Origin: a bacterium | GTDB lineage: Bacteria; Joyebacterota; Joyebacteria; Joyebacterales; Joyebacteraceae | Assembly: GCA_025774935.1 (NCBI GenBank) | Contig: JALGZK010000010.1 | Span: 3,640 to 67,639, forward strand | DNA length: 64,000 nucleotides | Direction: 5' to 3' | In this document: positions 13,368-40,540 of the stretch, one piece after another | Numbering within the stretch: position 1 is the first letter of the stretch | Layout of the letters: every line of letters begins with the position of its first letter | Position numbers and translations under genes: made by a program | The notes under the pieces: model-generated | Databases searched by the model: none | The model's input: the letters and a program-made list of their open reading frames with translations, nothing else | Told to the model about the DNA's origin: nothing

Positions 13368-13463
13368 CAGAGTCCTTTCGAGAATCCCCTACGACGCGGC
13401 CCGCCCGGCGTCACGCCGCAGGCGGTCCCGCCGGTTCCCGGCGGTTCACGGCGCCCGGCCCCG

Positions 13464-15043: not shown

Positions 15044-16896
15044 CGCTGCTCCTCCGTGCTCAGGCGGGGCCCGCTCTCCTCCCCTCGGGACCTCCTGAGG
15101 GCTCCGAACGTCCCCAGGAGGATCCTGAGATCGAGGAGGAGCGAGCAGTTCTCGACGTAGAACCTGTCGAGCCTGACCTTCTCCTCGAGGTCGATCTCGT
15201 CCCTCCCATTGATCTGCGCCCAGCCGGTGAGGCCGGGCCGGACCAGGTCGACCCCGACCTGGCGCCTGAGTTCGATCAGCTCGTACTGGTTGTAGAGGGC
15301 GGGCCGCGGCCCGACCACGCTCATCTCGCCGCGGAGCACGTTCACGAGGTTCGGGTACTCGTCGGCGCTCGTCCTCCTCAGGAACCACCCGAACTTCGTC
15401 ACGCAGCCGTCCTTCATCTGGCTGTGGTTCATCAGGTCTGTCGCGAGATCCGGCGTCTCGCGGTGCATCGTTCGGAGCTTCAGGATCGTGAACTCCTGTG
15501 AGTAGACGCCGATCCGCCTCTGCGTGAAGTGCGCGTGCCCCGGCGAGTCGAGCCTGACGGCGATCGCCAGGAGCGCGTGGAGGGGCGCTCCCACGATCAG
15601 GATGCCGAATGCCGTGAGGACGTCTAGCAAGTACTTGACCCCGAGGTAGTAGCGGAACTTGAGGTGGCTTCCGCAGAGCGCGCGCTCTGATGCGAGGATC
15701 TCCTCGAGAAGCTCCTCGAGCTTGCCGGCGAGGGCGGTCCTCGAGTACGCGTCCTCGACGAAGACCCGACCGCTCCTCCCGAGCGTGTGGCGCATCTCGG
15801 CGTCACCAAGGAGCGTCTTCACGGCCTCGGCGAGGCCTCGCCCGTCACCCGGCTTCGTCACGATGCCGCTGCCGGCACGTTCGACGATCTCCCGCGCGTC
15901 GCCCTCCACCGCGGCGACTACTGGCTTCCCGCACGCCATGTAGTCGAAGAGCTTCACCGGGATCGTGCTCGCCGAGAACTCCCCGCTCCTCGTCGTCGCG
16001 AGGCAGAGAGCTGAGCGGTGCACGAGCTCGCTGAGCTCGTCCGGCTGCTTGCTCGGAAGGAACTCGACGTTCCTGAGACCCCGCCCGTCGACCTGGCGGA
16101 CGAGGTCCTGCTTCGCGACGCCGTCGCCCACCAGGACGAACCTCGCGTCGCTCTCGTCCCTCAGGATCTCGGCGGCTTCGAGGATCACGTCCATCCCGTG
16201 AACGAGCCCGTGCGTCCCCGAGTAGATGACCGTCCGGCCGTCTCCGCCGTTGCCAGCGGGTCCTCCGGCGGCCGGAGCGAAAAGCTCCGTGTCCGCCCCG
16301 TTCGTGATGAGCGAGATCCTGTGCCGCGGGATGCCACGCTCGAGCATCAGTCGCTCCATACCGGGCGTGACGGCCACGAGCCTCGCTGCCCGGCGGTAGA
16401 GGAACTGCTCGAGGCTCTCCGCGGCGCGGATGGCCCGCCGGCTCCTCAGCTCGCCGAGCTCGACGGCCGCGTGTGGCCAGTAGTCCCTGAGATCGAGCAC
16501 GAACGGGACGCCACGGACGAGTCCGAGGAACCACGCCGTCAGTCCGAGGAAGAGCGGCGGAGAACTCACGAGGACCAGATCGCACTTCCCCGCGGCGCAC
16601 CCGCCGACCGCGGCGGTGATCATGAACGAGAGCTGGTTCGCAACGCGGGTGAAGAACGTCTTCCTGGGCGTCGCGAAGAGGTAGCACCTCAGGATGCGGA
16701 CGCCGTCTACCTCCTCGCGGCAAGCGAGCTTCCTCCGGTAGCGGGGCTGCTTCACGCCGCTCGGGTGGTTGGGCATGCCCGTCACGACCGTCACGGCGTG
16801 GCCCCGCTTCGCGAGATTCGTCGCGAAGTGATAGGCCCGAAGCGGCGCCGCGCCGGTCTCCGGCGGGTAGTACTGTGTCAGGAAGAGGATCCTCAT
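15040..16896 (-). CDS. Bifunctional GT4 glycosyltransferase / PglC-like phosphoglycosyltransferase (Bac_transf) fusion
   Basis: 618 aa; N-terminal GT4 ([35 protein letters not shown]...), C-terminal ~190 aa sugar-transferase domain (KYLLDVLTAFGILIVGAPL...SVVGPRPALYNQYELI...RPGLTGWAQINGR). Confidence 0.85.
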   Translation of the reverse strand: MRILFLTQYYPPETGAAPLRAYHFATNLAKRGHAVTVVTGMPNHPSGVKQPRYRRKLACREEVDGVRILRCYLFATPRKTFFTRVANQLSFMITAAVGGCAAGKCDLVLVSSPPLFLGLTAWFLGLVRGVPFVLDLRDYWPHAAVELGELRSRRAIRAAESLEQFLYRRAARLVAVTPGMERLMLERGIPRHRISLITNGADTELFAPAAGGPAGNGGDGRTVIYSGTHGLVHGMDVILEAAEILRDESDARFVLVGDGVAKQDLVRQVDGRGLRNVEFLPSKQPDELSELVHRSALCLATTRSGEFSASTIPVKLFDYMACGKPVVAAVEGDAREIVERAGSGIVTKPGDGRGLAEAVKTLLGDAEMRHTLGRSGRVFVEDAYSRTALAGKLEELLEEILASERALCGSHLKFRYYLGVKYLLDVLTAFGILIVGAPLHALLAIAVRLDSPGHAHFTQRRIGVYSQEFTILKLRTMHRETPDLATDLMNHSQMKDGCVTKFGWFLRRTSADEYPNLVNVLRGEMSVVGPRPALYNQYELIELRRQVGVDLVRPGLTGWAQINGRDEIDLEEKVRLDRFYVENCSLLLDLRILLGTFGALRRSRGEESGPRLSTEEQR

Positions 16897-18155: not shown

Positions 18156-18224
18156 CTTGATGGGTCCGCCCCTCGCTTCTCTGACGGTCCTTCCCAGAAT
18201 CGACCTCCGCGTGCTCGGCGTCCG

Positions 18225-21832: not shown

Positions 21833-21930
21833 CTCGACAACCCCGTGCACCCTTCCCGGCACTCGAGACGCCGGGTCCTTCGTTTCGCCTCGCTGTCTGC
21901 GCCGAGTCTCGCCCTTCGCGTCGCCCGCCC

Positions 21931-23439
21931 CTACGACGAGGCGCGGGAGGCGCCGGCGCGTTCCTCCTCTGACTCCTCCGTGCTCTCCACCCCGACCTCT
22001 CCCCCGCCTCCCTCCTGGTAGAGGTTCGCCGTGGTCGTCTTCCCCCACACGAGCGGCACCGTGGAGATGACCCGGCGGTACTTGCCTCGGCCGACGAGGG
22101 GAATGTCGTCGACGTACTCGATGGCGACCCGGACGTCGGGACCGAGCCTCTCGGCGATGTTCCTCCTGAGATCGTCCTCGTCGTGCGCCGCGAGCGGCTG
22201 CTTCACCACGAGCCGTGTGGTGATTTCCGCGGGGTCGTGCTGGACGATCTGCGACCTGACGATGCCCGGAAGAAGCTTGAACGCGCGCGCGACCATGAGA
22301 GGCGGCACGAGCCGGCCGTCCGGCGTCACCAGGATGTCCTCCGCCCGCATCGCCACGTCCCTCATGAGCGGCAGCTTCCTGCCGCAAGGGCAGTCGGTCC
22401 CCGCCATGGAGGCGGTGTCGCCGACCTCGTAGCGGATGAGCGGCATCCCGAAGTTGTGCAGGCCGGTCGCGACGACTCGTCCGACCGTACCGTCCGGAAC
22501 GGGGTCTCCGTCGTCGTCGAGGAGCTCCGTGATGCCGAACTCCATGTAGAGGTGGTGCCCCGTGTGCCGGTCGCACTCGCTCGAGTACATCACGCGCTCG
22601 GACTGACTGTAGCCGTCGAAGACCCGGCACTGGAACCGCTCCTCTATCACCTCGCGCTCGACGTCGAGGAGGGGCTCGGACGTCGTGAAGACGCACCTGA
22701 GCGGCAGGTACTCGTCGCGCTCCTCCATGAACCGGGCCAGGACGTACGCCGCGGTCGGGTGCGCGTCGAGCGCCACGACGCCGACCTCCCGCATCGCCTC
22801 GATGTAGAGCGGAGCGGACTCGTCGGTCATGTGGAGCGGAGACAGCATGAGGTAGTTCCACGGCCGGTTGTGGCGCCAGTAGGGAGGTCCCTTCTGGTCG
22901 AGAGGAACGACCGGGCGTCCGAGACACGTGGCGATCGGCTCGCCGAACTCGACCCCGGCCCAGTTCCGCTCGCGCCAGAGGCACGCGTTGTTCATGTAGC
23001 CGATCTCCCGGTCCCAGTACATGTAGAGGGACGAACCTGTCGTTCCGGCGCTGTGCGTCTTCTTGAGTGACTTCCTCGGGGCGGCGTCGGACACCAGCTG
23101 CTCGATGCTCCGGTCGACGTCCGCGCGCGTGAGCACGGGCAGCTTCGGCAGGTCGGAGAGACGAGTGATGTCGCCGGGGACGAGCTTGAGGCCGCTCATG
23201 AGGTCGCGGTAGTAGGGCACCGTCTCGTACGCGTGCCTCACGACCAGGCGGAGTCGCTCCTCCTGGTACGCCTCGAGCTCCTCGAGCGACAGCCACTGTG
23301 ACCGGTCGAGCAGCTCGCTCGCGCGGTCGAAACCCTGCCCGAAGCGCTCGCGGCGCAGCTTCCAGCCGTAGGCCGACATGATCACATTCTGGATCGGCAC
23401 GGGGCACCGGCTGTAGAGTCTCTCTCCGACGTACTCCAT
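21931..23439 (-). CDS. Adenylate-forming enzyme, phenylacetate-CoA ligase (PaaK)/CapK-like
   Basis: ORF 21931..23484; start at ATG 23439 (MEYVGERLY) with GAGGT upstream; motifs SAGTTGSS (P-loop-like A3), YRDL, FKLLPGIVRSQIV; acidic low-complexity C-terminal tail (ESTEESEEE). Confidence 0.7.
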   Translation of the reverse strand: MEYVGERLYSRCPVPIQNVIMSAYGWKLRRERFGQGFDRASELLDRSQWLSLEELEAYQEERLRLVVRHAYETVPYYRDLMSGLKLVPGDITRLSDLPKLPVLTRADVDRSIEQLVSDAAPRKSLKKTHSAGTTGSSLYMYWDREIGYMNNACLWRERNWAGVEFGEPIATCLGRPVVPLDQKGPPYWRHNRPWNYLMLSPLHMTDESAPLYIEAMREVGVVALDAHPTAAYVLARFMEERDEYLPLRCVFTTSEPLLDVEREVIEERFQCRVFDGYSQSERVMYSSECDRHTGHHLYMEFGITELLDDDGDPVPDGTVGRVVATGLHNFGMPLIRYEVGDTASMAGTDCPCGRKLPLMRDVAMRAEDILVTPDGRLVPPLMVARAFKLLPGIVRSQIVQHDPAEITTRLVVKQPLAAHDEDDLRRNIAERLGPDVRVAIEYVDDIPLVGRGKYRRVISTVPLVWGKTTTANLYQEGGGGEVGVESTEESEEERAGASRASS

Positions 23440-23446
23440 CCTCACC

Positions 23447-24550
23447 TCACGAGCGGCGGACCGACCGCGCCGCGCTCGACTCAACGAGCTTCAGGTAGGC
23501 CGTCTCGATCGTCCTCATGTTCTTCGAGAGGTCGCCCCTCTCCTCCACGATCGCCCTGTTGATCTCCGAGGCGCGCGCCCTCAGCTCGCGATCCGAGAGG
23601 GCGGCGGTAATCGCCTCTGCGTACGCCTCCGGGCCTTTGTCTGCGACCAGGAAGCCGTTTCGTCCGTGCTCTATCCAGTGGCGGTTCGCTGCGTTGTCCC
23701 AGACGATCGGGAAGCAGCCGCGCGCCATCGCTTCAAGGAGCGAGGCCGACACGCCGTCGACCCTGACGGCAGCCACGTAGACGCTCGAACTCCCGAGGAG
23801 CTTCGGGAGCTCGTCGTACGCCACTCCCCCCGCGAACCACACGCGGTCGTCAATCCCGAGGTCGCGCGTGAGCCCCTCGAGCTCCGCCGCGCAGTTCCCG
23901 GTCCCGGCGACCGCGCCCGTGATGGCGGGGACGTCCTTCCTGGCGAGCGCGAGCGCCTGGAGCACGACGTCGAGCCTGTAGTGGCGCTGGAGCGACCTCG
24001 TCGTGATCACCGAGTACTCTTCGTCGGCCCCGTCGTCCCGGGGCGCGAACCGCGCGAGGTCGATCCCGCGGGGGCACTCGAAGATCTTCTCCCGGTCCGC
24101 TCCGAGTTCGACCAGGCGATCCGACATGTGGGGCGCCCACGAGTGGATGAGGTCGGCCCGCCGGAGCGTCATCCGTACGGGTATCCTCTTCTGGGCGCGG
24201 AACGGCAGACCGACGATGATCTGGCTCTGCGCGACCACGACCAGCGGGTGGAACCCGGACATCGCGGCCACGAAGCCGTAGCTCGGGACCCGGTACCCGA
24301 CCACGAGGTCGGGCTCTATCTCGGCGATGATCTTCCTCACGCGCGGGATCTTCCCCAGATTCGCTACCCTTCCCGCGAAGCCCGGCTCGCCCTCCACGAC
24401 CGACAGGTCCCGCACGTCGATCGACGGGTCGAGCTCGGCCGGGGGACTCATGGACAGCACGTGCACGTCGTGGCCGAGCACCTTCGAGAAGTGCTCGACC
24501 CAGCTTCGCGTGTTCACGCTGCTGCCGTCTGCGAGAAAGCAGACCCGCAC
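23447..24550 (-). CDS. GT4 family glycosyltransferase
   Basis: ORF 23447..24607; start at GTG 24550 (VRVCFLADGSSVNT) with AGGAGG about 6 nt upstream; C-terminal SLLEAMARGCFPIV...GRNGFLV GT4 motif. Confidence 0.8.
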   Translation of the reverse strand: MRVCFLADGSSVNTRSWVEHFSKVLGHDVHVLSMSPPAELDPSIDVRDLSVVEGEPGFAGRVANLGKIPRVRKIIAEIEPDLVVGYRVPSYGFVAAMSGFHPLVVVAQSQIIVGLPFRAQKRIPVRMTLRRADLIHSWAPHMSDRLVELGADREKIFECPRGIDLARFAPRDDGADEEYSVITTRSLQRHYRLDVVLQALALARKDVPAITGAVAGTGNCAAELEGLTRDLGIDDRVWFAGGVAYDELPKLLGSSSVYVAAVRVDGVSASLLEAMARGCFPIVWDNAANRHWIEHGRNGFLVADKGPEAYAEAITAALSDRELRARASEINRAIVEERGDLSKNMRTIETAYLKLVESSAARSVRRS

Positions 24551-24575
24551 GCCTTGCCTCCTGTGAAACCGTCTC

Positions 24576-26600
24576 CTAGCCGCCGGACACCCAGCAGGCG
24601 TCCTCACCCGGCTGCCCGCTCTTCGTGAACAGGACCGTCTGTCCCGCCACGTTCGCCCCGATGAAGTCCCCCGTGTCGATGAACGTCACGTTCGGCATCG
24701 ACGAGACGCCCGACGAGGTCGCGTAGAGGACGTGCAGGAACATGTGCTCGTTTGCCGCGGTCGACGGTGACACCTCCACGCGCCACGACCCGCTCTCCGA
24801 CCCTCCGCCTCCGGCGGGCGGGTAGTTGACACCGTTCACCTCGAACTGCCGGCCGCTTCCGCCGACCGGCGTGATCTGGTGCTGCGTCGGGAGGAGCGTC
24901 TTCACGAACAGCCTCGAGTCTCCCTGCGTGACCGAGAACGTGTCGCCGGACACCTGGGGCTGGTTGATCGAGTGGAGGAGCCACTTCTTGGTGAACGACG
25001 GGGACGTGGCAGTGACCCTGTCCAGCACGACGAAGAAGTCCGGCTTGAGCCACACGAACTCCCTGGTGAAGTTCGAGAGCTTGTGCGACGAGTAGGCCTT
25101 CGTGGCGTCGCCCTTGACGTAGGTGAACGTCTCGGTGTCCCTGTACGGCGTGACGATGCTCCCGCGGTCGAACTCCGGGCCCGACATGTCGCCGCAGACG
25201 ACGGCGTCCGGATAGCTCCAGACCGGGATCTGACCTCCGTCGTTCGCGTACGGATAGAACGTCGACTCGCCGGGGTCGTAGACCGTGATCGTGTTGTGGG
25301 CGATGGTGCGGCAAAAGTAGTTCTGATGATGGGAGCTGATCGACGAGTCGTAGTCGCCCGAGTCGATCGCCAGGAGGTCGTTCCCCCTCGCAATCAGGAA
25401 GTGACCCTGATGGGAGTGGGTGTGGTACGACGGGACGGCCTCGCAGCGGAAGACGGCGTAGATGTCCGTGCTGTTCACGGAGAGGTCCCAGCCGGACCTC
25501 ATGTACACCATGCCCACGTCGTTGAAGAGGGCGGCGCTGTTGTCGCCGTAGACGGCGGACGGGTGGACGGGCGTGACCGACGGGTCCCGCCACACGATCT
25601 GCTTCCAGCGGTCGAACGAGTTGATGTACCCGGATCCCTGCTCGAGGACCTCGTCCGCCACCCACTGGGCCACCCCGTCGTTGTAGACGGCGGCCAGGTT
25701 GTAGAGCGCCATTCGGACGGCCCCCGACCCGCCGCTGTGCCAGTGGGAGTCGCCCTGCTTCGAACCGAGCGACGTCCCGCTCCCCTTCGCGGCGCCCGTG
25801 TCGTAGACGAGGTAGCGGGCCATGTTCTGGTAGTTGGTCGACCACGAGAACGGGTCGTCGGTGGTTCCGACGTCGTAGGCCGTCATGCCCATCCTGTTAC
25901 CCGTGCAGAGGATCGACATGTTGTAGTCGCCCTCGAAGTAGCCTCCGTCGCTCGCGATCTCGTCGAGACAGCAGAGGATGGTCGAGGAGCCGAACTGGTG
26001 GGCCGAGTACGTGTCGAGGCACGCGGTCGCGACCTGGTTGTTGATGCCCTCTCCGTACAGCGCGATGCCCGGGTACGACAGGAGCGCGATCCTCCCGAGC
26101 TTGGAGTGGTAGTTGTTCAGGCTGCTCCACTGCGTCCCGATGCCGCTGCCGCTCTGATACCAGTCGGCACCGTCTGCGAGCGCGCTGCCGTAGGTGCTGC
26201 GCTCGGACGCGGTGAGCCCGTCGTAGCACCAGTCGAAGAACACGCTCCCCCCGAAGATCCAGTCGGTCGAGTGGGTCTGGTTGTGGCTGATCACGTACGA
26301 CGCGACCGCCTTGGCCCGGTTGAGGTAGCTGGTGTCCTGGCTGACGAGGTAGACGAAGCTGTACGACGAGAGCGCCCAGCTCACGTTCACCGGCAGCGGG
26401 TCGTTGATGTGGCTGTCGCACCAGGTCTTGATCTTGTTGTAGTCCGCGGAGTAGGAACCCAGGGCTCTCGAGCGGATGCCGGAGACCTGGCTCGCCGTGA
26501 AGAAGAGCCGCGGGTGTCCCTGGATGACCTGGTACCCCTCCGCCGGGACCACCATGGCCACGACGACGAGAAAGAGCACAGCTAGGGTAGTGAGTCTCAT
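24576..26600 (-). CDS. Secreted heparinase II/III-like polysaccharide lyase family protein
   Basis: ORF 24576..26657; start at ATG 26600 (MRLTTLAVLFLVVVAMVVPAEG signal peptide) with GAGGAG upstream; large Trp/Tyr/His-rich carbohydrate-active fold; start overlaps the upstream stop (ATGA). Confidence 0.65.
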   Translation of the reverse strand: MRLTTLAVLFLVVVAMVVPAEGYQVIQGHPRLFFTASQVSGIRSRALGSYSADYNKIKTWCDSHINDPLPVNVSWALSSYSFVYLVSQDTSYLNRAKAVASYVISHNQTHSTDWIFGGSVFFDWCYDGLTASERSTYGSALADGADWYQSGSGIGTQWSSLNNYHSKLGRIALLSYPGIALYGEGINNQVATACLDTYSAHQFGSSTILCCLDEIASDGGYFEGDYNMSILCTGNRMGMTAYDVGTTDDPFSWSTNYQNMARYLVYDTGAAKGSGTSLGSKQGDSHWHSGGSGAVRMALYNLAAVYNDGVAQWVADEVLEQGSGYINSFDRWKQIVWRDPSVTPVHPSAVYGDNSAALFNDVGMVYMRSGWDLSVNSTDIYAVFRCEAVPSYHTHSHQGHFLIARGNDLLAIDSGDYDSSISSHHQNYFCRTIAHNTITVYDPGESTFYPYANDGGQIPVWSYPDAVVCGDMSGPEFDRGSIVTPYRDTETFTYVKGDATKAYSSHKLSNFTREFVWLKPDFFVVLDRVTATSPSFTKKWLLHSINQPQVSGDTFSVTQGDSRLFVKTLLPTQHQITPVGGSGRQFEVNGVNYPPAGGGGSESGSWRVEVSPSTAANEHMFLHVLYATSSGVSSMPNVTFIDTGDFIGANVAGQTVLFTKSGQPGEDACWVSGG

Positions 26601-28141
26601 GATGTCATCTCCTCTGCTGTCCGGGGAGCTTTGTCGGTTGCTGCGAAACGGACGCATCTATCTACAAGACCGGCGAGGAAGAAATAGGTCCCCGCGATCG
26701 ACATGTTCAGGAATCTCTCTCCGAAGACGTTCGCCGCAAGGAGCGCCGCGGTGGCGCTCAGGAAGCCGAGGGCGATGCCTCTGTCCAGCCTGCGGGATGC
26801 TGCGCGCAGGAGCTCTATGCCGCTCTTCACGCACGACACGAGGAGCCACGCGAGCGCGACTATTCCGATGAGACCCGCCTCTCCGAAGATCGCGACGTAG
26901 AGGTTGTGGGACGAGAACGACCGGCCGATCTCCTTGTAGGTCAGGAACGGGATGGTCGAGTACCCCATCCCCCAGATTGGCGAGCTGCGCATCGTCTCGC
27001 GGAAGACGATCCCCCAGATCTTGAGCCTCACCCCGGCGGACGGGTCGAGTTTGTCCGTCGGGTCTCCCATGAGCTCGGCCTCGACCGTGTCGACCCGAGT
27101 CTCCGCCACTCGGTCCTTCACGAAGTCGGGAGCCCAGATCGGGCTCAGCGCCAGCACGATCAGGAAGAGCACGAAGACGCGCTTGCTCACGCTCAGCGTC
27201 AGGAGCCCGAGCCCGCACGCGAATCCCACCAACGCCCCTCGGGAGTTCGGGAGGAAGACGCCGATCGCGGCGAATGCGGACGACACCCAGATCGTGAGTC
27301 GCTTCATCATCGGGAAGATCCTCGATGACACGAGGACGATCCCGATGATCATCGTGGCGCACATCGCGAAGTACGCGCCGAGGTCGTTCACGTCGCCGAG
27401 CGCACCTGAGACGCGCTGGTGCGAGGCGAGCCCGCCGTACTGGTCGAGCGCGATGAGGGCGCCGACCGTCAGACCGACGCCGAAGGTCACGAGGAGGTTC
27501 TTCATCTGCTCGCGGTTCTCGACCGTGTTCACGACGACGAAGTAGACCGCGATCCCGAGGACGCTGTTCCAGAGGTTCTTGACGAGCACCATCGCCGGGT
27601 AGCTCCCCGTCGACGGTGGGAAGACAACGACCTTGAGGAGCGACATGAAGAGCACGCCGATGAACAGGGCGATCGGCACGGTGAGCCTCGCCCTCACGAA
27701 GATCTGCTGTCTCGCGAAGATCCTGGGGACGATCCAGCTCACCAGGAGGATGATGAAGATGAGGTTGGGCGCGTTGATCCCGGGAATGCCCGTCGCGGGG
27801 AGGTACTCGCCGAGCGGGAGAGCGAGGAGCCAGGCGTGCAGCGCGACGTGGGGCCGGAAGAACGCGACTGTGAAGATGGTCACGCCCACGAGGATCTTGA
27901 TGATCCGGTGCGGAGCCTGCCCGTACGCGTAGTGGAGCTGGAAGATCGCGTAGGCCATGCCGAGAGCGACGACCGCGGCCACGACGTACAGCAGCCAGGC
28001 GTAGCTGTACTGCGGCACCTGGCTCGGCAGCGGGGGCGGCGCCGGGGTCTGTCTCGGCGTTCCGGGATCAGCCACCGCTCTCCTCCTCCGCGTGCTCCGT
28101 CGCGTCCGTCGTCCCGGCGTCCATGACCTCCGCCGCGTCAC
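26597..28141 (-). CDS. O-antigen ligase / Wzy-like polymerase family membrane protein
   Basis: About 12 TM helices; Wzy_C-like motifs RGALVGFACGLGLL and SSHNLYVAIFGEAGLIGIVAL. Start uncertain: ATG 28141 overlaps the upstream gene by 74 nt and gives an Arg-rich N-terminus; GTG near 28018 (VPQYSYAWLLYVV) is the alternative. Confidence 0.75.
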   Translation of the reverse strand: MTRRRSWTPGRRTRRSTRRRRAVADPGTPRQTPAPPPLPSQVPQYSYAWLLYVVAAVVALGMAYAIFQLHYAYGQAPHRIIKILVGVTIFTVAFFRPHVALHAWLLALPLGEYLPATGIPGINAPNLIFIILLVSWIVPRIFARQQIFVRARLTVPIALFIGVLFMSLLKVVVFPPSTGSYPAMVLVKNLWNSVLGIAVYFVVVNTVENREQMKNLLVTFGVGLTVGALIALDQYGGLASHQRVSGALGDVNDLGAYFAMCATMIIGIVLVSSRIFPMMKRLTIWVSSAFAAIGVFLPNSRGALVGFACGLGLLTLSVSKRVFVLFLIVLALSPIWAPDFVKDRVAETRVDTVEAELMGDPTDKLDPSAGVRLKIWGIVFRETMRSSPIWGMGYSTIPFLTYKEIGRSFSSHNLYVAIFGEAGLIGIVALAWLLVSCVKSGIELLRAASRRLDRGIALGFLSATAALLAANVFGERFLNMSIAGTYFFLAGLVDRCVRFAATDKAPRTAEEMTS

Positions 28142-29957
28142 CGAGCGTGAGTTCGTAGATCTCGACCACCGGGTTGTGGAACGAACGGCCGGGCCCGCGA
28201 TCGATCGACGGCATCGGGAACGTCTCGGCGAACCGCGCGACGCGGACGCCGTTCTCCCCGATCCAGTCGAGGAGCGTGCTCGGGCTGGGCGTGCCGGGCG
28301 GCTCCGCGCCCTCCATGGGCCGCCTCTGGTCCGCCTTGCTGGTGATCACGAGGTAGTCGGGGCGGATCTCCTCGATCGCCGCGATCATCGCGGCCTGGTC
28401 GTCGCCGGCCTCGGGGATCCGGAAGAGCTCCTGCCCCCAGCCGGAGCCGAAGATCCGGTACTGCGGGTGCCTCGCCCGACCGATGTCGAGCTCGAGCTCG
28501 TTGATGCGCCGCTTCGACGCGCTCCACGAGGAGACGCCCGTTTTGTCGGCTTCGATCGCGTGCTCGAGCTGCGCTGTCGCGCGGTTGAGCTCCGGCCCGT
28601 AGGACTCGACCACCACCGTGCTCCCCGCCTCGATGTTCTCCTCCACCCACTGCTTCGCCTGCGTGCGCGTGTCGGTCGCGTCGAGCGCGCGGACGAATCG
28701 GAGCGATGGCCACGCGGCGAACGCCAGCACGACGATCGCGACGGTCGTTGCCGCGGCCACCGCCGACGGGGCGCGCGACGTACCGCGTCCGCCGGGTGTC
28801 CGATCGAACGTCCCGAGCCCGAGCAGGAGGACGATCCCCGCGCCCGCCATGGCGGCGATCGCCGGGATCGCCGGCGTCACGTACGTCGAGCGCTTCACGG
28901 TGATCGCGATCAGGAACAGGAGGACGCAGACGACGTAGACGAGCGAGATGAGCGCGCCCGCGAGCCTGAGCTCGGGATGACCCGGTTCGAGCTTGTCGCC
29001 GGCCCTGCCGCGGCGCGCCCCCCGACCCTCGGCCACGCCGCGGCTGAGAGCGAGCACGAACCCGAGGACCGCGAGCAGGAGCACGGGGTAACCGACGCCC
29101 CGGCCGAGGCTCTTCCCGAACACTTCCCCGAGGCCTCGCCAGATCGAGCTCGCCTCCTGGGCGACGCCCGACTCGGACACCATCGTGAACTGCATGAGGA
29201 CGTCTCTCGAGAACTCGCCCGCGCTCACGACCGAGTACGGGGTTCCGATCACGAATCCGACGACGCACGCGACGATCGCGGCCGGGAGCACCCACGCCGC
29301 GATCGCCCGTCTCGAGACGAGGAAGACGAACGCCGTGAGGGTCCCCGCGAAGACGATCACTCCGGGGTACTTGGTGGACGCGGCCAGTCCGGCCAGGAGA
29401 CCCGAGAGAACGAGCTGGCTCGCCCGCCCGGAACGGACCGCGTAGAGAGCGAACAGGAGCGAGACCGACGCGAGGAAGGTCGTCGCCACGTCCGGAGTCG
29501 CGTAGTGCGAGTCGCGGACGTGAAGGAAGCCCACCGCGACCAGGGCCGCCGCGATGAGCCCGGCCGCCCTCCCGAAGGCCGTTCGGCCGAAGAGATACGT
29601 CGTCCAGACGGTGGCGACCCCGGCCGCCACCGAGACGTATCGTCCGATGAGCCAGAACGGCGTTAGGTCGGTGAGGTACGCGCGCGCGAGGTCGAGCGGC
29701 CCGCCGAACGTGCCGGCCGCCTTCCCGATGAGGTAGAAGACGGCGTAGAGGCCGAACACGAAGTACATCATCAGGGACGGCCACCTGAACCAGTGAGGGT
29801 TCATGTCGCCGGTGCCGAATCCGAGCGAGTGGATGAGGATCGAGCCCTCGTCGGGATGGTATGCGTGCGGGAGCCCCCACCCGATCCCCCAGATGCGGAT
29901 CCAGAGGGCGACCCCGATGATGACGATGAGGATGATCGTAGCGTTGCGTCGGCTCAT
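28068..29957 (-). CDS. GT39/ArnT-like (GT-C fold) membrane glycosyltransferase
   Basis: 629 aa; N-terminal polytopic domain with the HPDEG motif (AYHPDEGSILIH) typical of ArnT/PMT-type undecaprenyl/dolichyl-phosphate-sugar-dependent transferases; C-terminal soluble domain. Confidence 0.8.
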   Translation of the reverse strand: MSRRNATIILIVIIGVALWIRIWGIGWGLPHAYHPDEGSILIHSLGFGTGDMNPHWFRWPSLMMYFVFGLYAVFYLIGKAAGTFGGPLDLARAYLTDLTPFWLIGRYVSVAAGVATVWTTYLFGRTAFGRAAGLIAAALVAVGFLHVRDSHYATPDVATTFLASVSLLFALYAVRSGRASQLVLSGLLAGLAASTKYPGVIVFAGTLTAFVFLVSRRAIAAWVLPAAIVACVVGFVIGTPYSVVSAGEFSRDVLMQFTMVSESGVAQEASSIWRGLGEVFGKSLGRGVGYPVLLLAVLGFVLALSRGVAEGRGARRGRAGDKLEPGHPELRLAGALISLVYVVCVLLFLIAITVKRSTYVTPAIPAIAAMAGAGIVLLLGLGTFDRTPGGRGTSRAPSAVAAATTVAIVVLAFAAWPSLRFVRALDATDTRTQAKQWVEENIEAGSTVVVESYGPELNRATAQLEHAIEADKTGVSSWSASKRRINELELDIGRARHPQYRIFGSGWGQELFRIPEAGDDQAAMIAAIEEIRPDYLVITSKADQRRPMEGAEPPGTPSPSTLLDWIGENGVRVARFAETFPMPSIDRGPGRSFHNPVVEIYELTLGDAAEVMDAGTTDATEHAEEESGG

Positions 29958-30011
29958 GCGCTCCTCTCCGGACGCGGTCCCGCGGCTCTGCGCCGCGCGG
30001 CCCGGCGCCCG

Positions 30012-30371
30012 CTAGCTCCGCGAGATGACGAACACGCCGAGACAGATGATGACGAGACCTATGGTCCTCACGGCCGTGATGTGCTCCCCCAGAAAGAGCC
30101 AGGACGCCACGAAGACGAGCACGTACGCGAGGCTCACCATCGGGTACGCGAGGCTCAGGTCCACGTTTGACACCACCGCGATCCACAGGACGGCGGAGAG
30201 CCCGTAGCAGACGAAGCCGATCGCCACCTGCGGGACCTTGAGGATCGGGACGAGCTGACCCCACACGCTTCCTGCCGACACCTCGCCGTAGATCATCATC
30301 CCCTTCTTCATGATGACCTGGCCGGTGGCTCCCAGCAGGACCGCCGCGAGGATGAGCGGGATTCCCTTCAT
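30012..30371 (-). CDS. Small 4-TM DMT/SMR-like membrane protein (ArnE/ArnF- or GtrA-like flippase subunit)
   Basis: 119 aa, four hydrophobic helices, MKGIPLILAAVLLGATGQVIMKKG N-terminus typical of EamA/SMR-like Und-P-sugar flippase subunits; sits between the GT2 and GT39 genes. Confidence 0.65.
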   Translation of the reverse strand: MKGIPLILAAVLLGATGQVIMKKGMMIYGEVSAGSVWGQLVPILKVPQVAIGFVCYGLSAVLWIAVVSNVDLSLAYPMVSLAYVLVFVASWLFLGEHITAVRTIGLVIICLGVFVISRS

Positions 30372-30426
30372 CGAGCGCCTCCTCCACGAACCCGGACCGG
30401 CCGCGCGCCGCGGCCCCGGGCACGGA

Positions 30427-31179
30427 CTACGATGGTCTCCTGATGGCCTGACGTCCTGCGGCGACCATCACGAGGTATCGCCTGATGGTGTCCAGGATGT
30501 TCATCTTGCTCGCGCCGCCCTTCCTGTCGTACCTGAGGACGAGCGGCACCTCTGTCACGCGCGACGGGAGCTGCGCGAGCTTGAGAAGCACCTCGGCGGA
30601 CGAGACGAACCCGGACTCCGTGATGAGGTCGTCTCCGAAGACCCGGAATCCCGCCGCGAGGGTCGAACCCCTGTAGGCCCTGTATCCGCACGAGTAGTCC
30701 CGCACCCCGGGCACTCGCAGGAACGTCCTCAGGAGCATGCTCGCACCCTTGCTCAGGAAGCTCCTGAGAGGCGACAGCCCGACCTCCCTTCCGCCCTTCG
30801 CGTACCTGGAGGCGATGACGATGTCGTAGCCGTCATCGATCCGCTCGAGCATGTCCGGTATGATCGACGGATCGTGCGTGTCGTCGGTGTCCATGCCTAC
30901 GAGCACGCCGTCCTCGCCCGCGATGTCCTTGCCGCGAGCGAACCCGGTCCTGAGCGCCTCCCCGAGGCCGCGGTTGGTCTCGTGCGTCTCGACCGTCAGC
31001 TCGAGCCCGAGCTCCCGGGCGCGCTCCCTGGCCTTCTCCGCGGTCCCGTCTGAGCTCCCGTCGTCGACGAGGAGCACGCCCGCGGGACGGTCGACCCGGC
31101 CGAAGACGGCCGCGATCTTCTCCAGCAGGGGCCCGATCGCTCCGGACTCGTTGTATGCCGGCAGCATCACTACGAGCAT
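30427..31179 (-). CDS. GT2 polyprenyl-phosphate glycosyltransferase (ArnC/GtrB/DPM1-like)
   Basis: 250 aa; MLVVMLPAYNE start, VLLVDDGSSDGT (DxD-type), VGMDTDDTHDP; GAGGA Shine-Dalgarno upstream. Confidence 0.85.
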   Translation of the reverse strand: MLVVMLPAYNESGAIGPLLEKIAAVFGRVDRPAGVLLVDDGSSDGTAEKARERARELGLELTVETHETNRGLGEALRTGFARGKDIAGEDGVLVGMDTDDTHDPSIIPDMLERIDDGYDIVIASRYAKGGREVGLSPLRSFLSKGASMLLRTFLRVPGVRDYSCGYRAYRGSTLAAGFRVFGDDLITESGFVSSAEVLLKLAQLPSRVTEVPLVLRYDRKGGASKMNILDTIRRYLVMVAAGRQAIRRPS

Positions 31180-32333
31180 CGGTTCACGTTCCTCACTTTC
31201 GGCACGAAGTCCGCGGGGCGCGACGTCTTGCCGACGCCGAACGCGTGTTCGATGCCGTCGACGATCCTGACGGCAGCCCGCCCGTCGCCGTAGGGGTTCA
31301 CGGCGTTCGCCATCTCCGAATAGAGCCCGTCGTCGGTCAGGAGCGCGGAGATCCCCTCGGCGACAGACCTCTCGTCCGTCCCGACGATCCGCACGGTTCC
31401 GGCCTCGACCGCCTCCGGCCGCTCCGTCTCGTTCCTGAGCACGAGCACCGGCTTCCCGAGGGCCGGGGCCTCCTCCTGGAGGCCGCCCGAATCGGTCACG
31501 ACGATCGCGGCCTTCTTCATGAGGTCGACGAACGGCGCGTAGGGCATCGGATCGACGAGGTGGATCCGCGCGTGGCCCGAGAGGACCGCGCGCGCCGTCT
31601 CCTGAACGCGGGGGTTCAGGTGGACGGGATAGACGACCTCGATGTCACTCAGGTCGTCGGCCACGGTCCGGAGAGCGCGACAGATGTTCTCGAGCGGCTC
31701 CCCGAAGTTCTCCCGCCGGTGCGCCGTCACGAGGACGAAGCGTCCGCCCACCGGGACGCCGTGGGGCGGCGCCTTCGGGTCGCCGGCGACCTCGAGGAGG
31801 GCGTCTATGACCGTGTTGCCCGTGACGTAGATCGAGTCCGCGGATACGCCTTCGTCCAGGAGGTTCCGCCTGGCCTGCGCGGTCGGGGCGAAGTGGTAGA
31901 CCGACAGCGAGTCTGCGACCCTGCGGTTCATCTCCTCAGGAAACGGCGTGTAGAAGGAGTGCGTACGGAGTCCGGCCTCCACGTGTCCGACCGGGATCCG
32001 TCTGTAGAAGGCGGAGAGGGACGCCGCCATCGTGGTGGTCGTGTCCCCGTGCACCAGCACGAGGTCGGGGCTCTCGGAGGCGATGACCTCGTCCATGCCC
32101 TCGAGCACCGCTGAAGCCACGCGCCACGGGGGCTGGTTGTCGGTCATCACGCGCAGGTCGACGTCGGGAGCGATCGCGAAGAGATCGAGCACCTGGTCGA
32201 GCATCTCGCGGTGCTGGCCCGTCACGCAGATGCGCGACTCGACGCGCCCCTCGCGGGAGGCCAGCTCCTCGATGACGGGTGCCATCTTGATGGCTTCGGG
32301 ACGGGTCCCGAAAACCGAGAGCACTCGGACCAT
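31170..32333 (-). CDS. wecB: UDP-N-acetylglucosamine 2-epimerase (non-hydrolysing)
   Basis: ORF 31170..32693; start at ATG 32333 (MVRVLSVFGTRPEAIKMAPV) with GAGGAG upstream; conserved VTGQHREMLDQVL and HVEAGLRT motifs; the upstream 120 codons are Arg-rich and rejected. Confidence 0.9.
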   Translation of the reverse strand: MVRVLSVFGTRPEAIKMAPVIEELASREGRVESRICVTGQHREMLDQVLDLFAIAPDVDLRVMTDNQPPWRVASAVLEGMDEVIASESPDLVLVHGDTTTTMAASLSAFYRRIPVGHVEAGLRTHSFYTPFPEEMNRRVADSLSVYHFAPTAQARRNLLDEGVSADSIYVTGNTVIDALLEVAGDPKAPPHGVPVGGRFVLVTAHRRENFGEPLENICRALRTVADDLSDIEVVYPVHLNPRVQETARAVLSGHARIHLVDPMPYAPFVDLMKKAAIVVTDSGGLQEEAPALGKPVLVLRNETERPEAVEAGTVRIVGTDERSVAEGISALLTDDGLYSEMANAVNPYGDGRAAVRIVDGIEHAFGVGKTSRPADFVPKVRNVNRCS

Positions 32334-32338
32334 GCGTG

Positions 32339-34591
32339 CTACTCCTCTTCCTCCTCGAGCTCGCTGCTGTCGGACGTGTAGCCGTAGTAGCGGTAGTCGT
32401 AGTAGTACGGCAGCACGCGCTCGAGGTTGTTGACGACCACACCGAGCACGTTCTCCTTCTCGTCCCGCTGCAACTGAACGCCGCGTGTGACGACCTCTCT
32501 TGGAGTCACGCCGGCTCTGAGAACGATCACGACGCCGTCCACCTCGCCGCCCAGGATCATCGCGTCGGGCACGGGCAGGTTGGGCGCAGTGTCGAGGATC
32601 ACGGTGTCGAAGCTCGCGAGGAGCTCCGCCATGACGCGCGACCCGGGCATCGACTCGAGCAACCACGTCGGCTGATCTCGCCGGGTCCCGCACGGCAGGA
32701 CGAAGAGGTTCGGCAGCTTCGTCGGCTTGATGTCCGTGCCGAGGAGGTTTCCCCTCTCGAGAGCGTCGGAGAGCCCGGGCTTGGACGCCACGGCCATGAG
32801 GCGGTGCGCGCGGGGCTTCCTGAGGTCGCAGTCGACGAGGACGGTCCTGTGCCCGTAGTGCTTCGCGAGCGTGATGGCGAGCGAGGCCGCCGCGGTCGAC
32901 TTCCCCTCCCCCCTGTTCGCGCTCGTGACCAGGATCGACTTGGGGATGTCGCGCCCCACGCCGCGCGCGATCCTCCTCGCCATCCTCCTGAACTCGAAGC
33001 TGACCGCGGTCTCCCGCACCATGTGCCGGAGGAGCTCCGAGTCCCCGTTGGATGGCCCCGCACCCTTCTTCCTTACCTTCTTCGCGGCCTTCTTCTCCCT
33101 CGCCGAGATGCCTCGCAGAACGTCGCTGCTCGGGATGGTCGCCAGCACGGGAACGCCTACCGCGGCCTCGATCTCGTCGATGTTCTTGAAGGACGTGTCT
33201 CCCTGCTCCGAGACGAGGATGGCGGCGAGTCCGACGACGGCGCCTCCGAAGACCGACATCACGAGGATCATCAGCTTGTCGGGAGCGACGGGCGAGGTCG
33301 GGCGGACCGGGGGCTCGATGATCTCGAACCGCCCGCCGGCTCGCGCGGCCTCGAGAGCCTCCGTGATCTGGCCGGCTGCGGTCTGCTGTAGAAACGCCTC
33401 GTAAAGGGCCCGCGTCGACTCGACCTCCTGCTCGAGCCTCGTGATCTCGAGCTGGCTTCCCGCGGCCGACGCGCGGCCGCGCGTGTAGTCCCGCATGAAC
33501 CTGCCGAGCACCGACGCCCGCTCCGAGATCATCTGCTCCTCCACCTGAGCGATTCGGTACTGAGCGAACGCCTCCAGGATGTCCGGCGCGGCTCCCGGCA
33601 CGGCCGCCGCGGCCAGTCTCCTCGCCTCCTGGCGGTACTGGTCCTTCTTCTCGGCCTCGCTGACGTAGAGCGTCGTGATCTCGGGACCCTCCTGCGCCGA
33701 GAGTACGAGCACGGAGGCGACCTCCCGCTCGAGCTCGACGAGCTGCTCGGAGTACGACGTGAGGAGGTCGGACTCGAGCACCGAGAGCCTGTTGTACGAG
33801 TTCCCGGCGAGGCCCATCAGGTCATTTCGCTTCTCGTTGACCCGCTCGCCGGCGCGGTCGCGCTCGACGGTCGCCTGACTTATGAGGATGTCGACGCGCC
33901 CGACGTTCGTCGAGTTGACGGGGTTGGCCATCGAGTAGCCGACCGCCTGGCTCTCGCGGTAGTCCTTCAGGCGCAGTTCGGCGTCGTCGAGCTTCTGCCG
34001 GTAGATGACGAGCTGCTCGATGCTGAAGTCGTAGACCGCCCTGATCTCCTCGAGCTGCTCGCGGTTCGACGCACTCACGAAGGCGTTGGTGATGTGCTGC
34101 GCGAGGAGGGTCGCCCGGTCGGGATCGGTGTCCCGTATCACGACCTGGAACCCGTCGGTCGACGAACGGTGGACGCTGATCCGTCGACGGAGCCCCTCCA
34201 CGGCCGCCCCCTCCGCCAGATCCTGGACCGGGATCGCCGGATCCTCCGCGTACGTCTCCTCAGCCCACGCCTTGATCCCCGGATCCTCCGCGAGGTCGAG
34301 CGAGCGGACGAGTTCGACGAGGAACGCCCTGCTCTTCAGCTTCTCCTGAACTCGCGAGAGTTGCTCCTCCGCCGGCGACCGTCCGATGATCTGCGCGAGC
34401 CCCTCCGAGAACCTCTCCTGCACCTTGACGACTATCGTGCTCCTGGCCTCGTAGACCGGCGCGAGCGTCTGCGCGACCCCGAAGCCTGCGCCCCCGGCCA
34501 CGACGATCGGGACGATGAGTAGCCACTTCCGCCTCCACACGGCCCTCAGGAGCGCCATAACGTCGATAGTCTGTACCGGCTGGTCAGGCAT
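32339..34591 (-). CDS. Polysaccharide co-polymerase / tyrosine autokinase (Wzc/EpsG-like, chain-length determinant fused to BY-kinase)
   Basis: 750 aa; N-terminal TM (WLLIVPIVVAGGAGFGV), long coiled-coil periplasmic region, second TM, Walker A (SANRGEGKST), DTAP motif, C-terminal Tyr cluster YYYDYRYYGY. Confidence 0.85.
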   Translation of the reverse strand: MPDQPVQTIDVMALLRAVWRRKWLLIVPIVVAGGAGFGVAQTLAPVYEARSTIVVKVQERFSEGLAQIIGRSPAEEQLSRVQEKLKSRAFLVELVRSLDLAEDPGIKAWAEETYAEDPAIPVQDLAEGAAVEGLRRRISVHRSSTDGFQVVIRDTDPDRATLLAQHITNAFVSASNREQLEEIRAVYDFSIEQLVIYRQKLDDAELRLKDYRESQAVGYSMANPVNSTNVGRVDILISQATVERDRAGERVNEKRNDLMGLAGNSYNRLSVLESDLLTSYSEQLVELEREVASVLVLSAQEGPEITTLYVSEAEKKDQYRQEARRLAAAAVPGAAPDILEAFAQYRIAQVEEQMISERASVLGRFMRDYTRGRASAAGSQLEITRLEQEVESTRALYEAFLQQTAAGQITEALEAARAGGRFEIIEPPVRPTSPVAPDKLMILVMSVFGGAVVGLAAILVSEQGDTSFKNIDEIEAAVGVPVLATIPSSDVLRGISAREKKAAKKVRKKGAGPSNGDSELLRHMVRETAVSFEFRRMARRIARGVGRDIPKSILVTSANRGEGKSTAAASLAITLAKHYGHRTVLVDCDLRKPRAHRLMAVASKPGLSDALERGNLLGTDIKPTKLPNLFVLPCGTRRDQPTWLLESMPGSRVMAELLASFDTVILDTAPNLPVPDAMILGGEVDGVVIVLRAGVTPREVVTRGVQLQRDEKENVLGVVVNNLERVLPYYYDYRYYGYTSDSSELEEEEE

Positions 34592-34657
34592 GTACCCCCC
34601 GTGAGTTCGGATGTGCTCGTGGCATCGATGCCGTCCCGCTCGCTGCTCGAGAGCCGC

Positions 34658-35695
34658 CTACGGTGTCGTTGTGGTTGTCTGCTGCTGCTGCGCCGTCGCG
34701 ATCGCCGCGTTCCTGAACCTGCGGTCGTCGATCTCCCGCTCGATGCTGAGGTAGAGGAGGTAGGCGGTGAGCACCTGGGTCGTCGCGGTGAGAAGCGCGC
34801 CCGCGGCGTTCCAGAACTGGCCGCCGAACGTGTCCTGCGTCGATCCGATGACCACCCTGTCTCCCGCCCTCAGGAAGAACGGCTTCGGCGTGCCGCGTGT
34901 GAGCACGCTCTTGAGGTCCACCTTCGCGACGGCGTGCCCCTCGCCCGCGTCCATCACCACCGAGACCTCGTCCAGTCGCGCGTCGACCGTCGTGCCTCCC
35001 GCGATCGCGATGAGCTGGAAGAGGTCGATCCTGTCCGACGTCGCGTACGCCCCGGGCGTGTTCACCTCGCCGAAGATGTAGACCATGCCCGGGCCCGCGA
35101 GGCCTCCCCCGCCAATGATCGACGGGATCTCGATCGTGTCGCCGGGCATGAGCGCGGGGAGCGGCTGCGCCGTCTCGCCTCTCATGTACGCGCCGAGATC
35201 GACGTTGATGAGCTCGGGTCCGCCGATCGAGGGTCTCAGGATCGAGACGTTGGAGAGGTCGGCGCTCGGGAGCGCCCCTCCGGCGGAACTGAGGAGCTGC
35301 AGGATGTCGGGGATGGCCTCGAAGCTGTAGCGCCCGGGCGCGGTGACCTGTCCGGTCAGATAGACGGCTCTGCTGTTGAACTGCTCGACCGACACCGTTA
35401 CCTGGGTGGTCTCCCTCGTGTAGTCTCTCAGGCGCTGGACGATCTCCCTCGAAAGCTCGGACGGAGTGAGTCCGGCCGCCGTGAGCTCGCCGATCGGGGG
35501 GAGCGTGATCGTCCCGTTCGATTTGACGGTGACGTCCTGGTTCAGGTCGGAGTGACGCCAGACCGCGACCCTGAGCACATCGCCCGGGCCGATGACGTAC
35601 TCGATTCCCTGCTGCTGCGCCGGCGCCTCGACCGCAACGAGCGGCAGGATCATGGTAACGAGCAGGATCGATGACACGAGCTTTCTGCTGGACAT
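34658..35695 (-). CDS. Polysaccharide export protein (Wza/EpsE-like, Poly_export + SLBB domains)
   Basis: ORF 34658..35845; start at internal ATG (MSSRKLVSSILLVTMILPLVAVEAPAQ signal peptide); motif YVIGPGDVLRVAVW typical of Wza-like proteins; C-terminal helix AGALLTATTQVLTAYLLYL. Confidence 0.85.
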   Translation of the reverse strand: MSSRKLVSSILLVTMILPLVAVEAPAQQQGIEYVIGPGDVLRVAVWRHSDLNQDVTVKSNGTITLPPIGELTAAGLTPSELSREIVQRLRDYTRETTQVTVSVEQFNSRAVYLTGQVTAPGRYSFEAIPDILQLLSSAGGALPSADLSNVSILRPSIGGPELINVDLGAYMRGETAQPLPALMPGDTIEIPSIIGGGGLAGPGMVYIFGEVNTPGAYATSDRIDLFQLIAIAGGTTVDARLDEVSVVMDAGEGHAVAKVDLKSVLTRGTPKPFFLRAGDRVVIGSTQDTFGGQFWNAAGALLTATTQVLTAYLLYLSIEREIDDRRFRNAAIATAQQQQTTTTTP

Positions 35696-36079
35696 CGTTC
35701 GTCCCCCCGAGTCAGAACTGCGTGGAAGTCGCCGGTCGTGCCGGCGGCGTCCCGTCTGTTCCACGTTCTCGCTGAGTTCCCAGAGTTGTGCGGCACACGA
35801 CGGGCGGCCCGGGACGCGAGTCCCGCAGTCGCCCGGCGCACACATGGTTACCGGCTACGGACACAGCGGTCAACAGGAAACAGTCAGAACTGTTGCCTTT
35901 TCCGACACCCCCACTCCAGCCACTCGCACGGGTCATCTCTAATACCTTGCGGTTCAACAAGTTACGGATATCCACAAGGGGGGCTCCGCGTGCCGGGAGC
36001 GAACGCAGGGACCCCCCGGAAAGCACACAATGAAGCAGTTCCGGGGGGTCCTTTTGCATCACCTGTGCCAGAGAGAACC

Positions 36080-40517: not shown

Positions 40518-40540
40518 CTTCACCCCGCTTGTACGTCGGT

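Follow-up and report, generated by a model that had tools for sequence, protein, structure and literature searches.

Why should a bacterium place the gene for a polysaccharide-cleaving enzyme among the genes that build a polysaccharide, with its start codon laid over the stop codon of a polymerase-like gene? The question is raised by a 64-kb stretch of DNA (the whole of which is called the window below; ~68% GC) from contig JALGZK010000010.1 of assembly GCA_025774935.1 (positions 3,640 to 67,639), which belongs to a bacterium placed in the Joyebacterota by GTDB. Nearly all genuine genes of the window lie on the minus strand, and the G+C bias at third codon positions (GC3) was used to separate coding open reading frames (ORFs) from antisense ones. 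The first-pass annotation had singled out the region 24576-28141, in which two ORFs, 26597-28141 and 24576-26657, lie, as encoding a Wzy/O-antigen-ligase-like membrane protein and a secreted heparinase II/III-like lyase, translationally coupled inside a biosynthetic operon, and had proposed built-in trimming or remodelling of the product. Both ORFs are real genes: they are on the minus strand, show coding-type GC3 values of 0.89 and 0.93 (vs. ~0.66 for genome GC), and give Pfam matches above the cut-offs. In the reading favoured here, to which slightly better than even weight is given, the enzyme would be a periplasmic lyase with the fold of polysaccharide lyase (PL) family 21 that, like AlgL and VexL, processes the operon's own uronic-acid polymer and is made in step with the Wzy_C-family membrane protein (Wzy_C).

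The lyase (24576..26600, minus strand; 674 aa, in an ORF that extends to 26657) matched the Pfam family Hepar_II_III_C (PF07940) at 49.1 bits, against a cut-off of 24, and phmmer aligned it with heparinase II (HepII; PDB 2FUQ) at E=8e-42. A profile of 26 orthologues matched 2FUQ at E=1e-78, in two stretches spanning the N- and C-terminal parts; the same profile matched the PL15 lyase Atu3025 at 6e-23 and human dermatan sulfate epimerase 1 (DS-epi1) at 3e-7, over a local stretch of 55 residues. The NCBIfam HepB model (NF045571) scored 173.3 bits, against an equivalog cut-off of 600. Judged by these alignments, the protein is a relative of HepB and not a HepB orthologue. HepII (HepB of Pedobacter heparinus, the founding member of PL21) is its closest characterized relative, distant but clear, and shares with it the three-part fold, the catalytic His/Tyr/His, and the Zn-site residues. 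Identity to HepII is ~22% over the full length and rises to ~35% with HepB-like proteins over the C-terminal ~45%. The two enzymes differ in that the window protein is ~100 residues shorter, does not keep HepII Glu205, and is encoded in a biosynthetic rather than a catabolic operon.

An AlphaFold2 model of the lyase, built from a 41-sequence alignment, had a mean predicted local distance difference test (pLDDT) score of 92.8 and consists of an N-terminal (α/α)-toroid domain followed by β-sandwich domains. Foldseek comparison with the PDB placed HepII structures (3E7J, 2FUT, and 2FUQ) on top, with TM-scores of 0.71-0.73 and E ~1e-36 over ~720 columns. Lyases from PL15, PL17, PL33, PL35, and PL12 came after these, and DS-epi1 held rank 12 (TM-score 0.70). 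The active-site residues of HepII, which from the HepII literature we take to be His202, Tyr257, and His406, were located in the window protein through phmmer and profile alignments to 2FUQ, and their conservation was read from the 41-sequence and 26-sequence alignments. HepII His202 corresponds to His165 (codon at 26106..26108, minus strand), which is kept in at least 90% of orthologues; Tyr257 corresponds to Tyr226 (25923..25925, minus strand), which is invariant in both alignments; and His406 corresponds to the invariant His393 (25422..25424, minus strand). The second tyrosine of HepII, Tyr429, is matched by Tyr417, invariant among the 26 orthologues. Of the Zn ligands, Asp425 and His451 have invariant counterparts in Asp413 and His435, and His408 is matched in the window protein by His395, a position taken by Asn in some orthologues. 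Retention of the active-site and Zn residues argues against a pseudoenzyme and makes an active, HepII-type enzyme very probable.

The single N-terminal hydrophobic segment of the lyase is a predicted signal peptide of 22 residues (26535..26600, minus strand), with cleavage between MRLTTLAVLFLVVVAMVVPAEG and YQV. Sec-type signals, with Arg or Lys in the n-region, a hydrophobic core and an AXA-like site, were recognized in 25 of the 26 orthologues, and the cleavage-type site directly precedes a conserved Y-x-V-x-x-G-H-P-R motif. Neither a lipobox Cys nor a PEP-CTERM tail nor any other sorting tag was found in the lyase sequence. A Sec signal without a sorting tag makes the periplasm the default destination. 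The first-pass assignment of a secreted heparinase II/III-like lyase thus agrees with the signal peptides, the HepII fold (TM-score 0.72), and the intact catalytic residues.

In a search of 5.8 billion proteins, the lyase orthologues formed a group of ~50 clusters (47-81% identity, 667-680 aa) whose named members are from Ca. Eisenbacteria, and beyond it came a tail of relatives at 25-36% identity that includes genuine HepB proteins. Distant homologues (29-36% identity) have unrelated neighborhoods and do not lie in exopolysaccharide (EPS) operons, which argues that only in this clade is the lyase tied to biosynthesis. The nearest full-length relative outside the orthologue group (P0056, on a 15.8-kb contig of JGI sample 3300075153) has 36% identity and lacks a signal peptide; next to it are an Amidase_3 gene and several small ORFs in succession, perhaps a phage or mobile context. 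A phage origin for the lyase, or kinship with phage depolymerases, was considered and rejected: there was one partial match (34%) to a fragmentary phage record and none in IMG/VR.

The coupling of the lyase gene to wzy_C was read directly from the DNA. The lyase ATG at 26600 lies over the Wzy_C TGA (26599-26597), forming an ATGA start/stop overlap at 26597..26600 on the minus strand, and a Shine-Dalgarno sequence, GAGGAG, stands at 26614-26609, eight bases before the ATG and within the wzy_C gene. Related loci, 33 in all, were gathered by exact-protein look-ups and by scanning GTDB species, each represented by one genome; the scan returned 27 loci, from 26 metagenome-assembled genomes (MAGs) that carry the label Ca. 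Eisenbacteria or Ca. Effluviviaceae. Closest to the window are MAGs from seeps and hydrothermal sediments, of a kind described as Ca. Effluviviacota (PMC11323493). Comparison by tblastn with the window proteins revealed the same gene order, from ddl through Wza to the exosortase, and the succession Wzy_C, lyase, GT4 was invariant wherever flanks were present, across 33 loci and 26 GTDB species. At the Wzy_C/lyase junction, the 4-bp ATGA overlap was found in 19 of 29 loci; nine had a gap of 4-15 nt, often as TGAcatcATGA, and one looked disrupted. Preservation of the junction across loci indicates that the coupling is a selected feature and not a chance overlap.

The start first annotated for wzy_C, at 28141, probably lies 66 nt upstream of the true one. 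A GTG at 28075 is in frame, is preceded by GGAGGAGGAG, and gives a protein of 492 aa, compared to 488-510 aa for the orthologues; the gene therefore likely occupies 26597..28075 (minus strand; maximal ORF to 28141). This GTG (28073-28075) overlaps the stop codon of the upstream PMT_2 gene (28068-28070), reading GTGGCTGA on the minus strand, so a start/stop overlap also couples Wzy_C itself to PMT_2. The protein matched PF04932 at 56.6 bits (cut-off 31.7) and has ~11 transmembrane (TM) segments and a large periplasmic loop. Its AlphaFold2 model (pLDDT 83) best matched the O-antigen ligase WaaL (7TPG; E=9e-8, target-normalized TM-score 0.67), followed by FtsW, and the periplasmic region contains an invariant Arg279 and a nearly invariant His390. 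NCBIfam also gave a weak TfpM match (E=6.5e-5). Homologues form a lineage-restricted family about as large as that of the lyase, beyond which a single match was found, at E=5e-7. Because the fold and motifs are common to polymerases, ligases, and PglL-type O-oligosaccharyltransferases, the assignment leans on the Wzc and Wza that the operon also encodes, which favor a polymerase; WaaL shares the fold with 18% identity, and the Wzc/Wza context points away from a lipid-A-core ligase.

The surroundings of the pair were defined by scanning ORFs of substantial size with GC3 support, over the whole 64 kb, with Pfam and NCBIfam. The genes from Wza to EpsI form one co-directional, minus-strand block in which adjacent genes overlap or are separated by short gaps, and the stretch 17000-36500 contained no terminator-like site on this strand. 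With this single-strand arrangement, and with the coupling kept across a phylum-level lineage, the placement of the lyase inside a biosynthesis operon stood. In order from high to low coordinates, the block begins with a Wza-like outer-membrane polysaccharide export protein (34658..35845; Pfam Poly_export and SLBB) and a Wzc-like co-polymerase/tyrosine autokinase (32339..34591; Pfam Wzz, GNVR, and P-loop). A nonhydrolyzing UDP-GlcNAc 2-epimerase, WecB (31170..32300, start approximate), scored 458.6 bits with TIGR00236 (cut-off 210). It is followed by a glycosyltransferase family 2 (GT2) enzyme resembling polyprenyl-phosphate sugar synthases (30427..31179; PF00535, with sub-cut-off NCBIfam matches to dolichyl-P hexose transferase, PpgS, and ArnC), a 119-aa EamA or ArnE/ArnF-like four-helix transporter (30012..30371; Pfam EamA, with NCBIfam ArnF at E=2.9e-16 and ArnE at E=1.6e-9, both sub-cut-off), and a PMT_2 (ArnT-like GT-C) glycosyltransferase (28068..29957; PF13231, 47.7 bits; ~11 TM segments). 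Wzy_C and the lyase come next.

Directly downstream of the lyase, still on the minus strand, lies a GT4 glycosyltransferase (23447..24550; Pfam Glycos_transf_1), likely starting at GTG 24550 after AGGAGG. A CapK/PaaK-like adenylate-forming enzyme (21931..23484) gave sub-cut-off matches to PaaK- and DVU1553-type ligases in NCBIfam, and its orthologues match PF27533 (CapK_C); the gene is absent from the related loci L010, L011, L015, and L027, suggesting an optional acyl or amide modification of the polymer. A double GT4 of ~770-800 aa follows (~19496-21901), then a polysaccharide deacetylase of carbohydrate esterase family 4 (CE4; 18225-19538), another GT4 (16893-18155), and a 618-aa fusion of a GT4 with a Bac_transf initiating phosphoglycosyltransferase (PGT; 15040-16896), the last three assigned by the Pfam and NCBIfam scans. 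Both the GT4-Bac_transf fusion and the tandem double GT4 are unusual, and both are kept across the lineage. The exosortase runs from 14105 to ~15040 (within 12483..15388; PF09721, 226 bits; TIGR02602, 198.8 bits against a cut-off of 105.55) and EpsI occupies 13464-14108 (PF11984). Beyond EpsI the block continues with a 294-aa protein with ~8 TM segments, a tetratricopeptide repeat protein, and a PrsR-like sigma-54 response regulator. The 8-TM protein (12483-13367) has no Pfam or NCBIfam family, directly follows EpsI, retains 44-45% identity in L010 and L011, and may be a membrane component of the exosortase system.

The operon contains the initiating PGT (Bac_transf), Wzy_C, a Wzc of the polysaccharide co-polymerase type 2a (Wzz/GNVR/kinase), and a Wza of the outer-membrane polysaccharide export class (Poly_export/SLBB), all parts of Wzx/Wzy-type pathways, together with exosortase and EpsI and a nearby PEP-CTERM protein (3154-4032, minus strand; PF07589). 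On these family assignments, the locus is an exosortase-associated, Wzy-type EPS operon. It shares with the XrtA/PEP-CTERM EPS loci an exosortase with EpsI, Wza/Wzc-type export, an stp2-type GT4, a PrsR-like sigma-54 regulator, and PEP-CTERM proteins nearby. Models specific for XrtA systems were top or near-top matches at sub-cut-off scores: TIGR03109 (XrtA) at 195 bits vs. 208, TIGR02915 (PrsR) at 414 vs. 503, and, for Wzc and Wza, TIGR03007 at 154 vs. 279, TIGR03018 at 122 vs. 231, and TIGR03027 at 123 vs. 180. The sole XrtA-type model above its cut-off was stp2 (TIGR03088; 421.7 vs. 409), matched by the N-terminal half of the double GT4. Because most XrtA-specific models fall under their cut-offs, the locus is called XrtA-like and not canonical XrtA. 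The description of XrtA/PEP-CTERM loci by Haft et al. in 2006 (PMC1569441) mentions neither a PL21-like enzyme nor a WecB/GT2/EamA/PMT_2 module. Literature searches found no published description of this locus and no work connecting Wzx/Wzy or exosortase loci with heparinase II/III proteins.

That polysaccharide operons can include an enzyme to cleave the polymer is well established. Known examples include PslG, BcsZ, ExoK, and the sphingan lyases. In the alginate operon of Pseudomonas, the periplasmic PL5 lyase AlgL is proposed to clear misdirected polymer or to set its size (PMC8829089); as here, a lyase with a signal peptide is encoded within a polysaccharide operon, which in the case of AlgL makes its substrate. 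AlgL differs in its family, in serving a synthase-dependent pathway, and in lacking translational coupling to the polymerase. VexL is a periplasmic endolyase encoded in the Vi-antigen loci of Burkholderiales and is specific for the N-acetylhexosaminuronic acid (HexNAcA) polymer of its own locus (PMC6003464). It likewise is a periplasmic enzyme of a biosynthesis locus, but its fold is the β-helix of pectate lyases and its pathway depends on an ABC transporter. With AlgL and VexL as precedents, the trimming or remodelling first proposed for this operon appears the most reasonable reading of the pair.

We infer lyase rather than epimerase chemistry, a substrate that is the operon's own product, and a physiological role of the following kind. 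The fused GT4-PGT and the four further GT4 domains would assemble the repeat unit on undecaprenyl-PP, and the unit would be flipped by a flippase encoded outside the locus, polymerized by Wzy_C under Wzc control, and exported via Wza, with optional periplasmic decoration by the WecB/GT2/EamA/PMT_2 module. The lyase would cut N-acetylhexosamine (HexNAc)-(1→4)-uronate bonds by β-elimination, either clearing polymer that escapes into the periplasm or fails to enter Wza, or setting chain length. Translational coupling would supply the enzyme in fixed proportion to the Wzy_C polymerase. Such chemistry requires a uronic acid in the substrate. One hint of an acidic polymer is the resemblance of the operon GT4s to TviE, TuaC, and PglH-type HexNAc(A) transferases; another is the CapK-type enzyme, a class that we associate with amidation of uronate carboxyls. 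Three results weigh against this proposal. No UDP-sugar dehydrogenase was found in the operon or elsewhere in the 64-kb window, which leaves the presence of uronic acid in the product conjectural. The HepB score lies so far below its equivalog cut-off that heparin specificity, or any substrate specificity, cannot be transferred from HepB. Lastly, the catalytic residues of the lyase are the same as those of DS-epi1. Elsewhere in the window (1133-3039, plus strand), a Gfo/Idh/MocA oxidoreductase gene, whose best NCBIfam match is UDP-GlcNAc 3-dehydrogenase at a sub-cut-off score, overlaps one for a hexapeptide-repeat acetyltransferase. The pair, a further indirect hint of an acidic polymer, resembles the WbpB/WbpD steps of diacetamido-uronic acid synthesis and points to possible synthesis of 3-amino or diacetamido sugars.

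The third of these points leads to the strongest alternative, namely that the enzyme is a periplasmic uronate C5-epimerase acting on the polymer, as a bacterial counterpart of DS-epi1. It could, for example, act in the manner of AlgG on the chain emerging from Wzy and turn D-HexNAcA or glucuronic acid residues into the L-epimers. Human DS-epi1 (6HZN) has the same fold and the same layout of catalytic and metal sites, matches the lyase model with the TM-score of 0.70 noted above, and acts on its polymer during biosynthesis; its catalytic residues, a His/Tyr/Tyr set that the window protein also contains, are all common to HepII and cannot separate lyase from epimerase, and "minute changes" suffice to switch a lyase to an epimerase (PMC8006597). 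The lyase orthologues also match PF16332, now named DSE-like_N, and co-translation with a polymerase suits a tailoring enzyme no less than a degradative one. DS-epi1 differs in its marginal sequence similarity, in being a eukaryotic Golgi enzyme, and in epimerizing without net cleavage. The profile match to HepII (1e-78) surpasses that to the epimerase (3e-7) by ~70 orders of magnitude in E-value, the solved structures with this fold among the top 50 Foldseek matches are all lyases, DS-epi1 excepted, and literature searches revealed no bacterial epimerase of this fold. An epimerase is thus considered unlikely, yet it is the alternative to be taken most seriously, and preference goes to a periplasmic lyase whose substrate would be the polymer made by its own operon.

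How the repeat unit reaches the periplasm is a separate question. The first-pass annotation had noted that the locus lacks a Wzx-type flippase gene and had suggested that export may be non-canonical. The absence was borne out: a Pfam scan of Wzx-sized, GC3-supported ORFs in the 64-kb window gave no match to the Wzx families PF01943, PF13440, or PF14667 or to MurJ, and the tblastn comparison of gene order found neither a Wzx-like gene nor a gap for one in the related loci. In all six frames of the window, frames of at least 250 codons with at least six predicted TM segments were those of the 8-TM protein, the exosortase, Wzy_C, PMT_2, a weakly PMT_2-like protein, and MlaE; none besides the 8-TM protein was unassigned. 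Three ORFs were considered as a hidden Wzx and set aside: 40912-42261 has no TM segments, 42361-43800 encodes the weakly PMT_2-like GT-C protein, and 12483-13367 has ~8 TM segments in 294 aa and no family match.

These negative results would suit a pathway in which a MOP-family Wzx is truly absent and the undecaprenyl-PP-linked repeat unit is flipped by the ArnE/F-like EamA protein or by the 8-TM protein (12483-13367); no unassigned ORF with 10-12 TM segments was found in the 64 kb, and the related loci leave no room for one. EamA is also better conserved than any other protein encoded in the operon (75-95% identity, compared with 47-65% for others). It belongs to an Arn/Gtr-like periplasmic decoration module of WecB, GT2, EamA, and PMT_2 (28068-32300, minus strand) that is embedded in the EPS operon. 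This module, EamA excepted, is missing from loci L001/L002/L008 and L015; EamA is kept in these two lineages lacking WecB, GT2, and PMT_2, at 8069-8428 in L001/L008 and 8067-8426 in L015. The losses in L001/L008 and in L015, the sister of L010, were independent. In the module-less lineages, however, EamA diverges faster than in any module-keeping lineage (72-79% identity); L015 has 75% identity to its sister L010, whereas the distant L010 and L013 share 92%. Faster divergence exactly where the module was lost is expected if the constrained role of EamA is to flip the GT2 product for PMT_2, as in Arn/Gtr-like systems. Judged by this pattern, EamA behaves like the flippase of the accessory GT2/PMT_2 module and not of the core pathway, and its candidacy for the latter was downgraded. 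It is common for a Wzx gene to lie apart from the Wzy cluster. As the scan covered the window and the related loci, a Wzx encoded elsewhere in the genome is the simpler explanation; non-canonical flipping is regarded as doubtful, and the earlier suggestion of non-canonical export was not supported.

A bolder combination of these ideas, rated lower still, would join a Wzx-less Wzy pathway, with flipping by EamA or the 8-TM protein, to a Wzy-coupled enzyme that serves as an obligatory editing partner, either as a C5-epimerase or as a chain-terminating cutter. Least probable is a catabolic or antagonistic enzyme that attacks glycosaminoglycan-like polysaccharides of foreign origin or those of competitors, so as to feed on them or to invade biofilms, and is found in the operon by chance or for co-regulation: HepII-family enzymes are classically catabolic and Ca. 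Effluviviacota genomes are reported to encode many PLs and glycoside hydrolases (PMC11323493), but no transporter, sulfatase, or sugar-catabolic gene is adjacent to the lyase, its slot between Wzy_C and GT4 is kept with the start/stop overlap across 26 species, and it has a Sec signal alone, without an outer-membrane or secretion tag.

If a lyase acting on the operon's own product is correct, the rule that polysaccharide operons encode their own cutter, known from the synthase-dependent and ABC-dependent systems of AlgL and VexL, would come to cover a Wzy-type system, an exosortase-associated locus, and an enzyme family of the PL21-like kind. What is new is the family, otherwise known from glycosaminoglycan catabolism, in a Wzy-type exosortase-associated pathway, together with a lineage-wide start/stop coupling to the polymerase in an uncultured, phylum-level host group. 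The conserved coupling leads to a testable prediction, that Wzy and the lyase form a functional pair, and the enzyme might find use in selectively depolymerizing the matrix polymer of Ca. Eisenbacteria/Effluviviacota, bacteria often met with in sediments and seeps. The epimerase and the obligatory Wzy partner of a Wzx-less pathway, both improbable, would be considerably more interesting if true; an epimerase would, to our knowledge, be the first bacterial enzyme of the DS-epimerase type.

The remaining observations concern the rest of the window. Long plus-strand ORFs opposite the operon and elsewhere (24879-26585, 28092-29666, and 40876-45303; up to 1475 aa) failed the GC3 coding pattern and were rejected as genes, and no Pfam match was found for the plus-strand ORFs 39498-40838 and 40876-45303; these long antisense ORFs are artefacts of the high GC content. 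The minus-strand ORF 42361-43800, which lies outside the operon, encodes 479 aa with at least six TM segments and a weak PMT_2 match (E=0.019) and is probably a second GT-C glycosyltransferase; it adjoins two proteins without a family match (40912-42261 and 45071-46024). Just downstream of the PrsR-like regulator, the minus-strand region 3154-9502 encodes the PEP-CTERM protein, two large fn3-rich secreted proteins, one of which has a FlgD_ig C-terminal domain, and a PEGA/DUF5683 protein, all of them likely exosortase cargo or matrix proteins.

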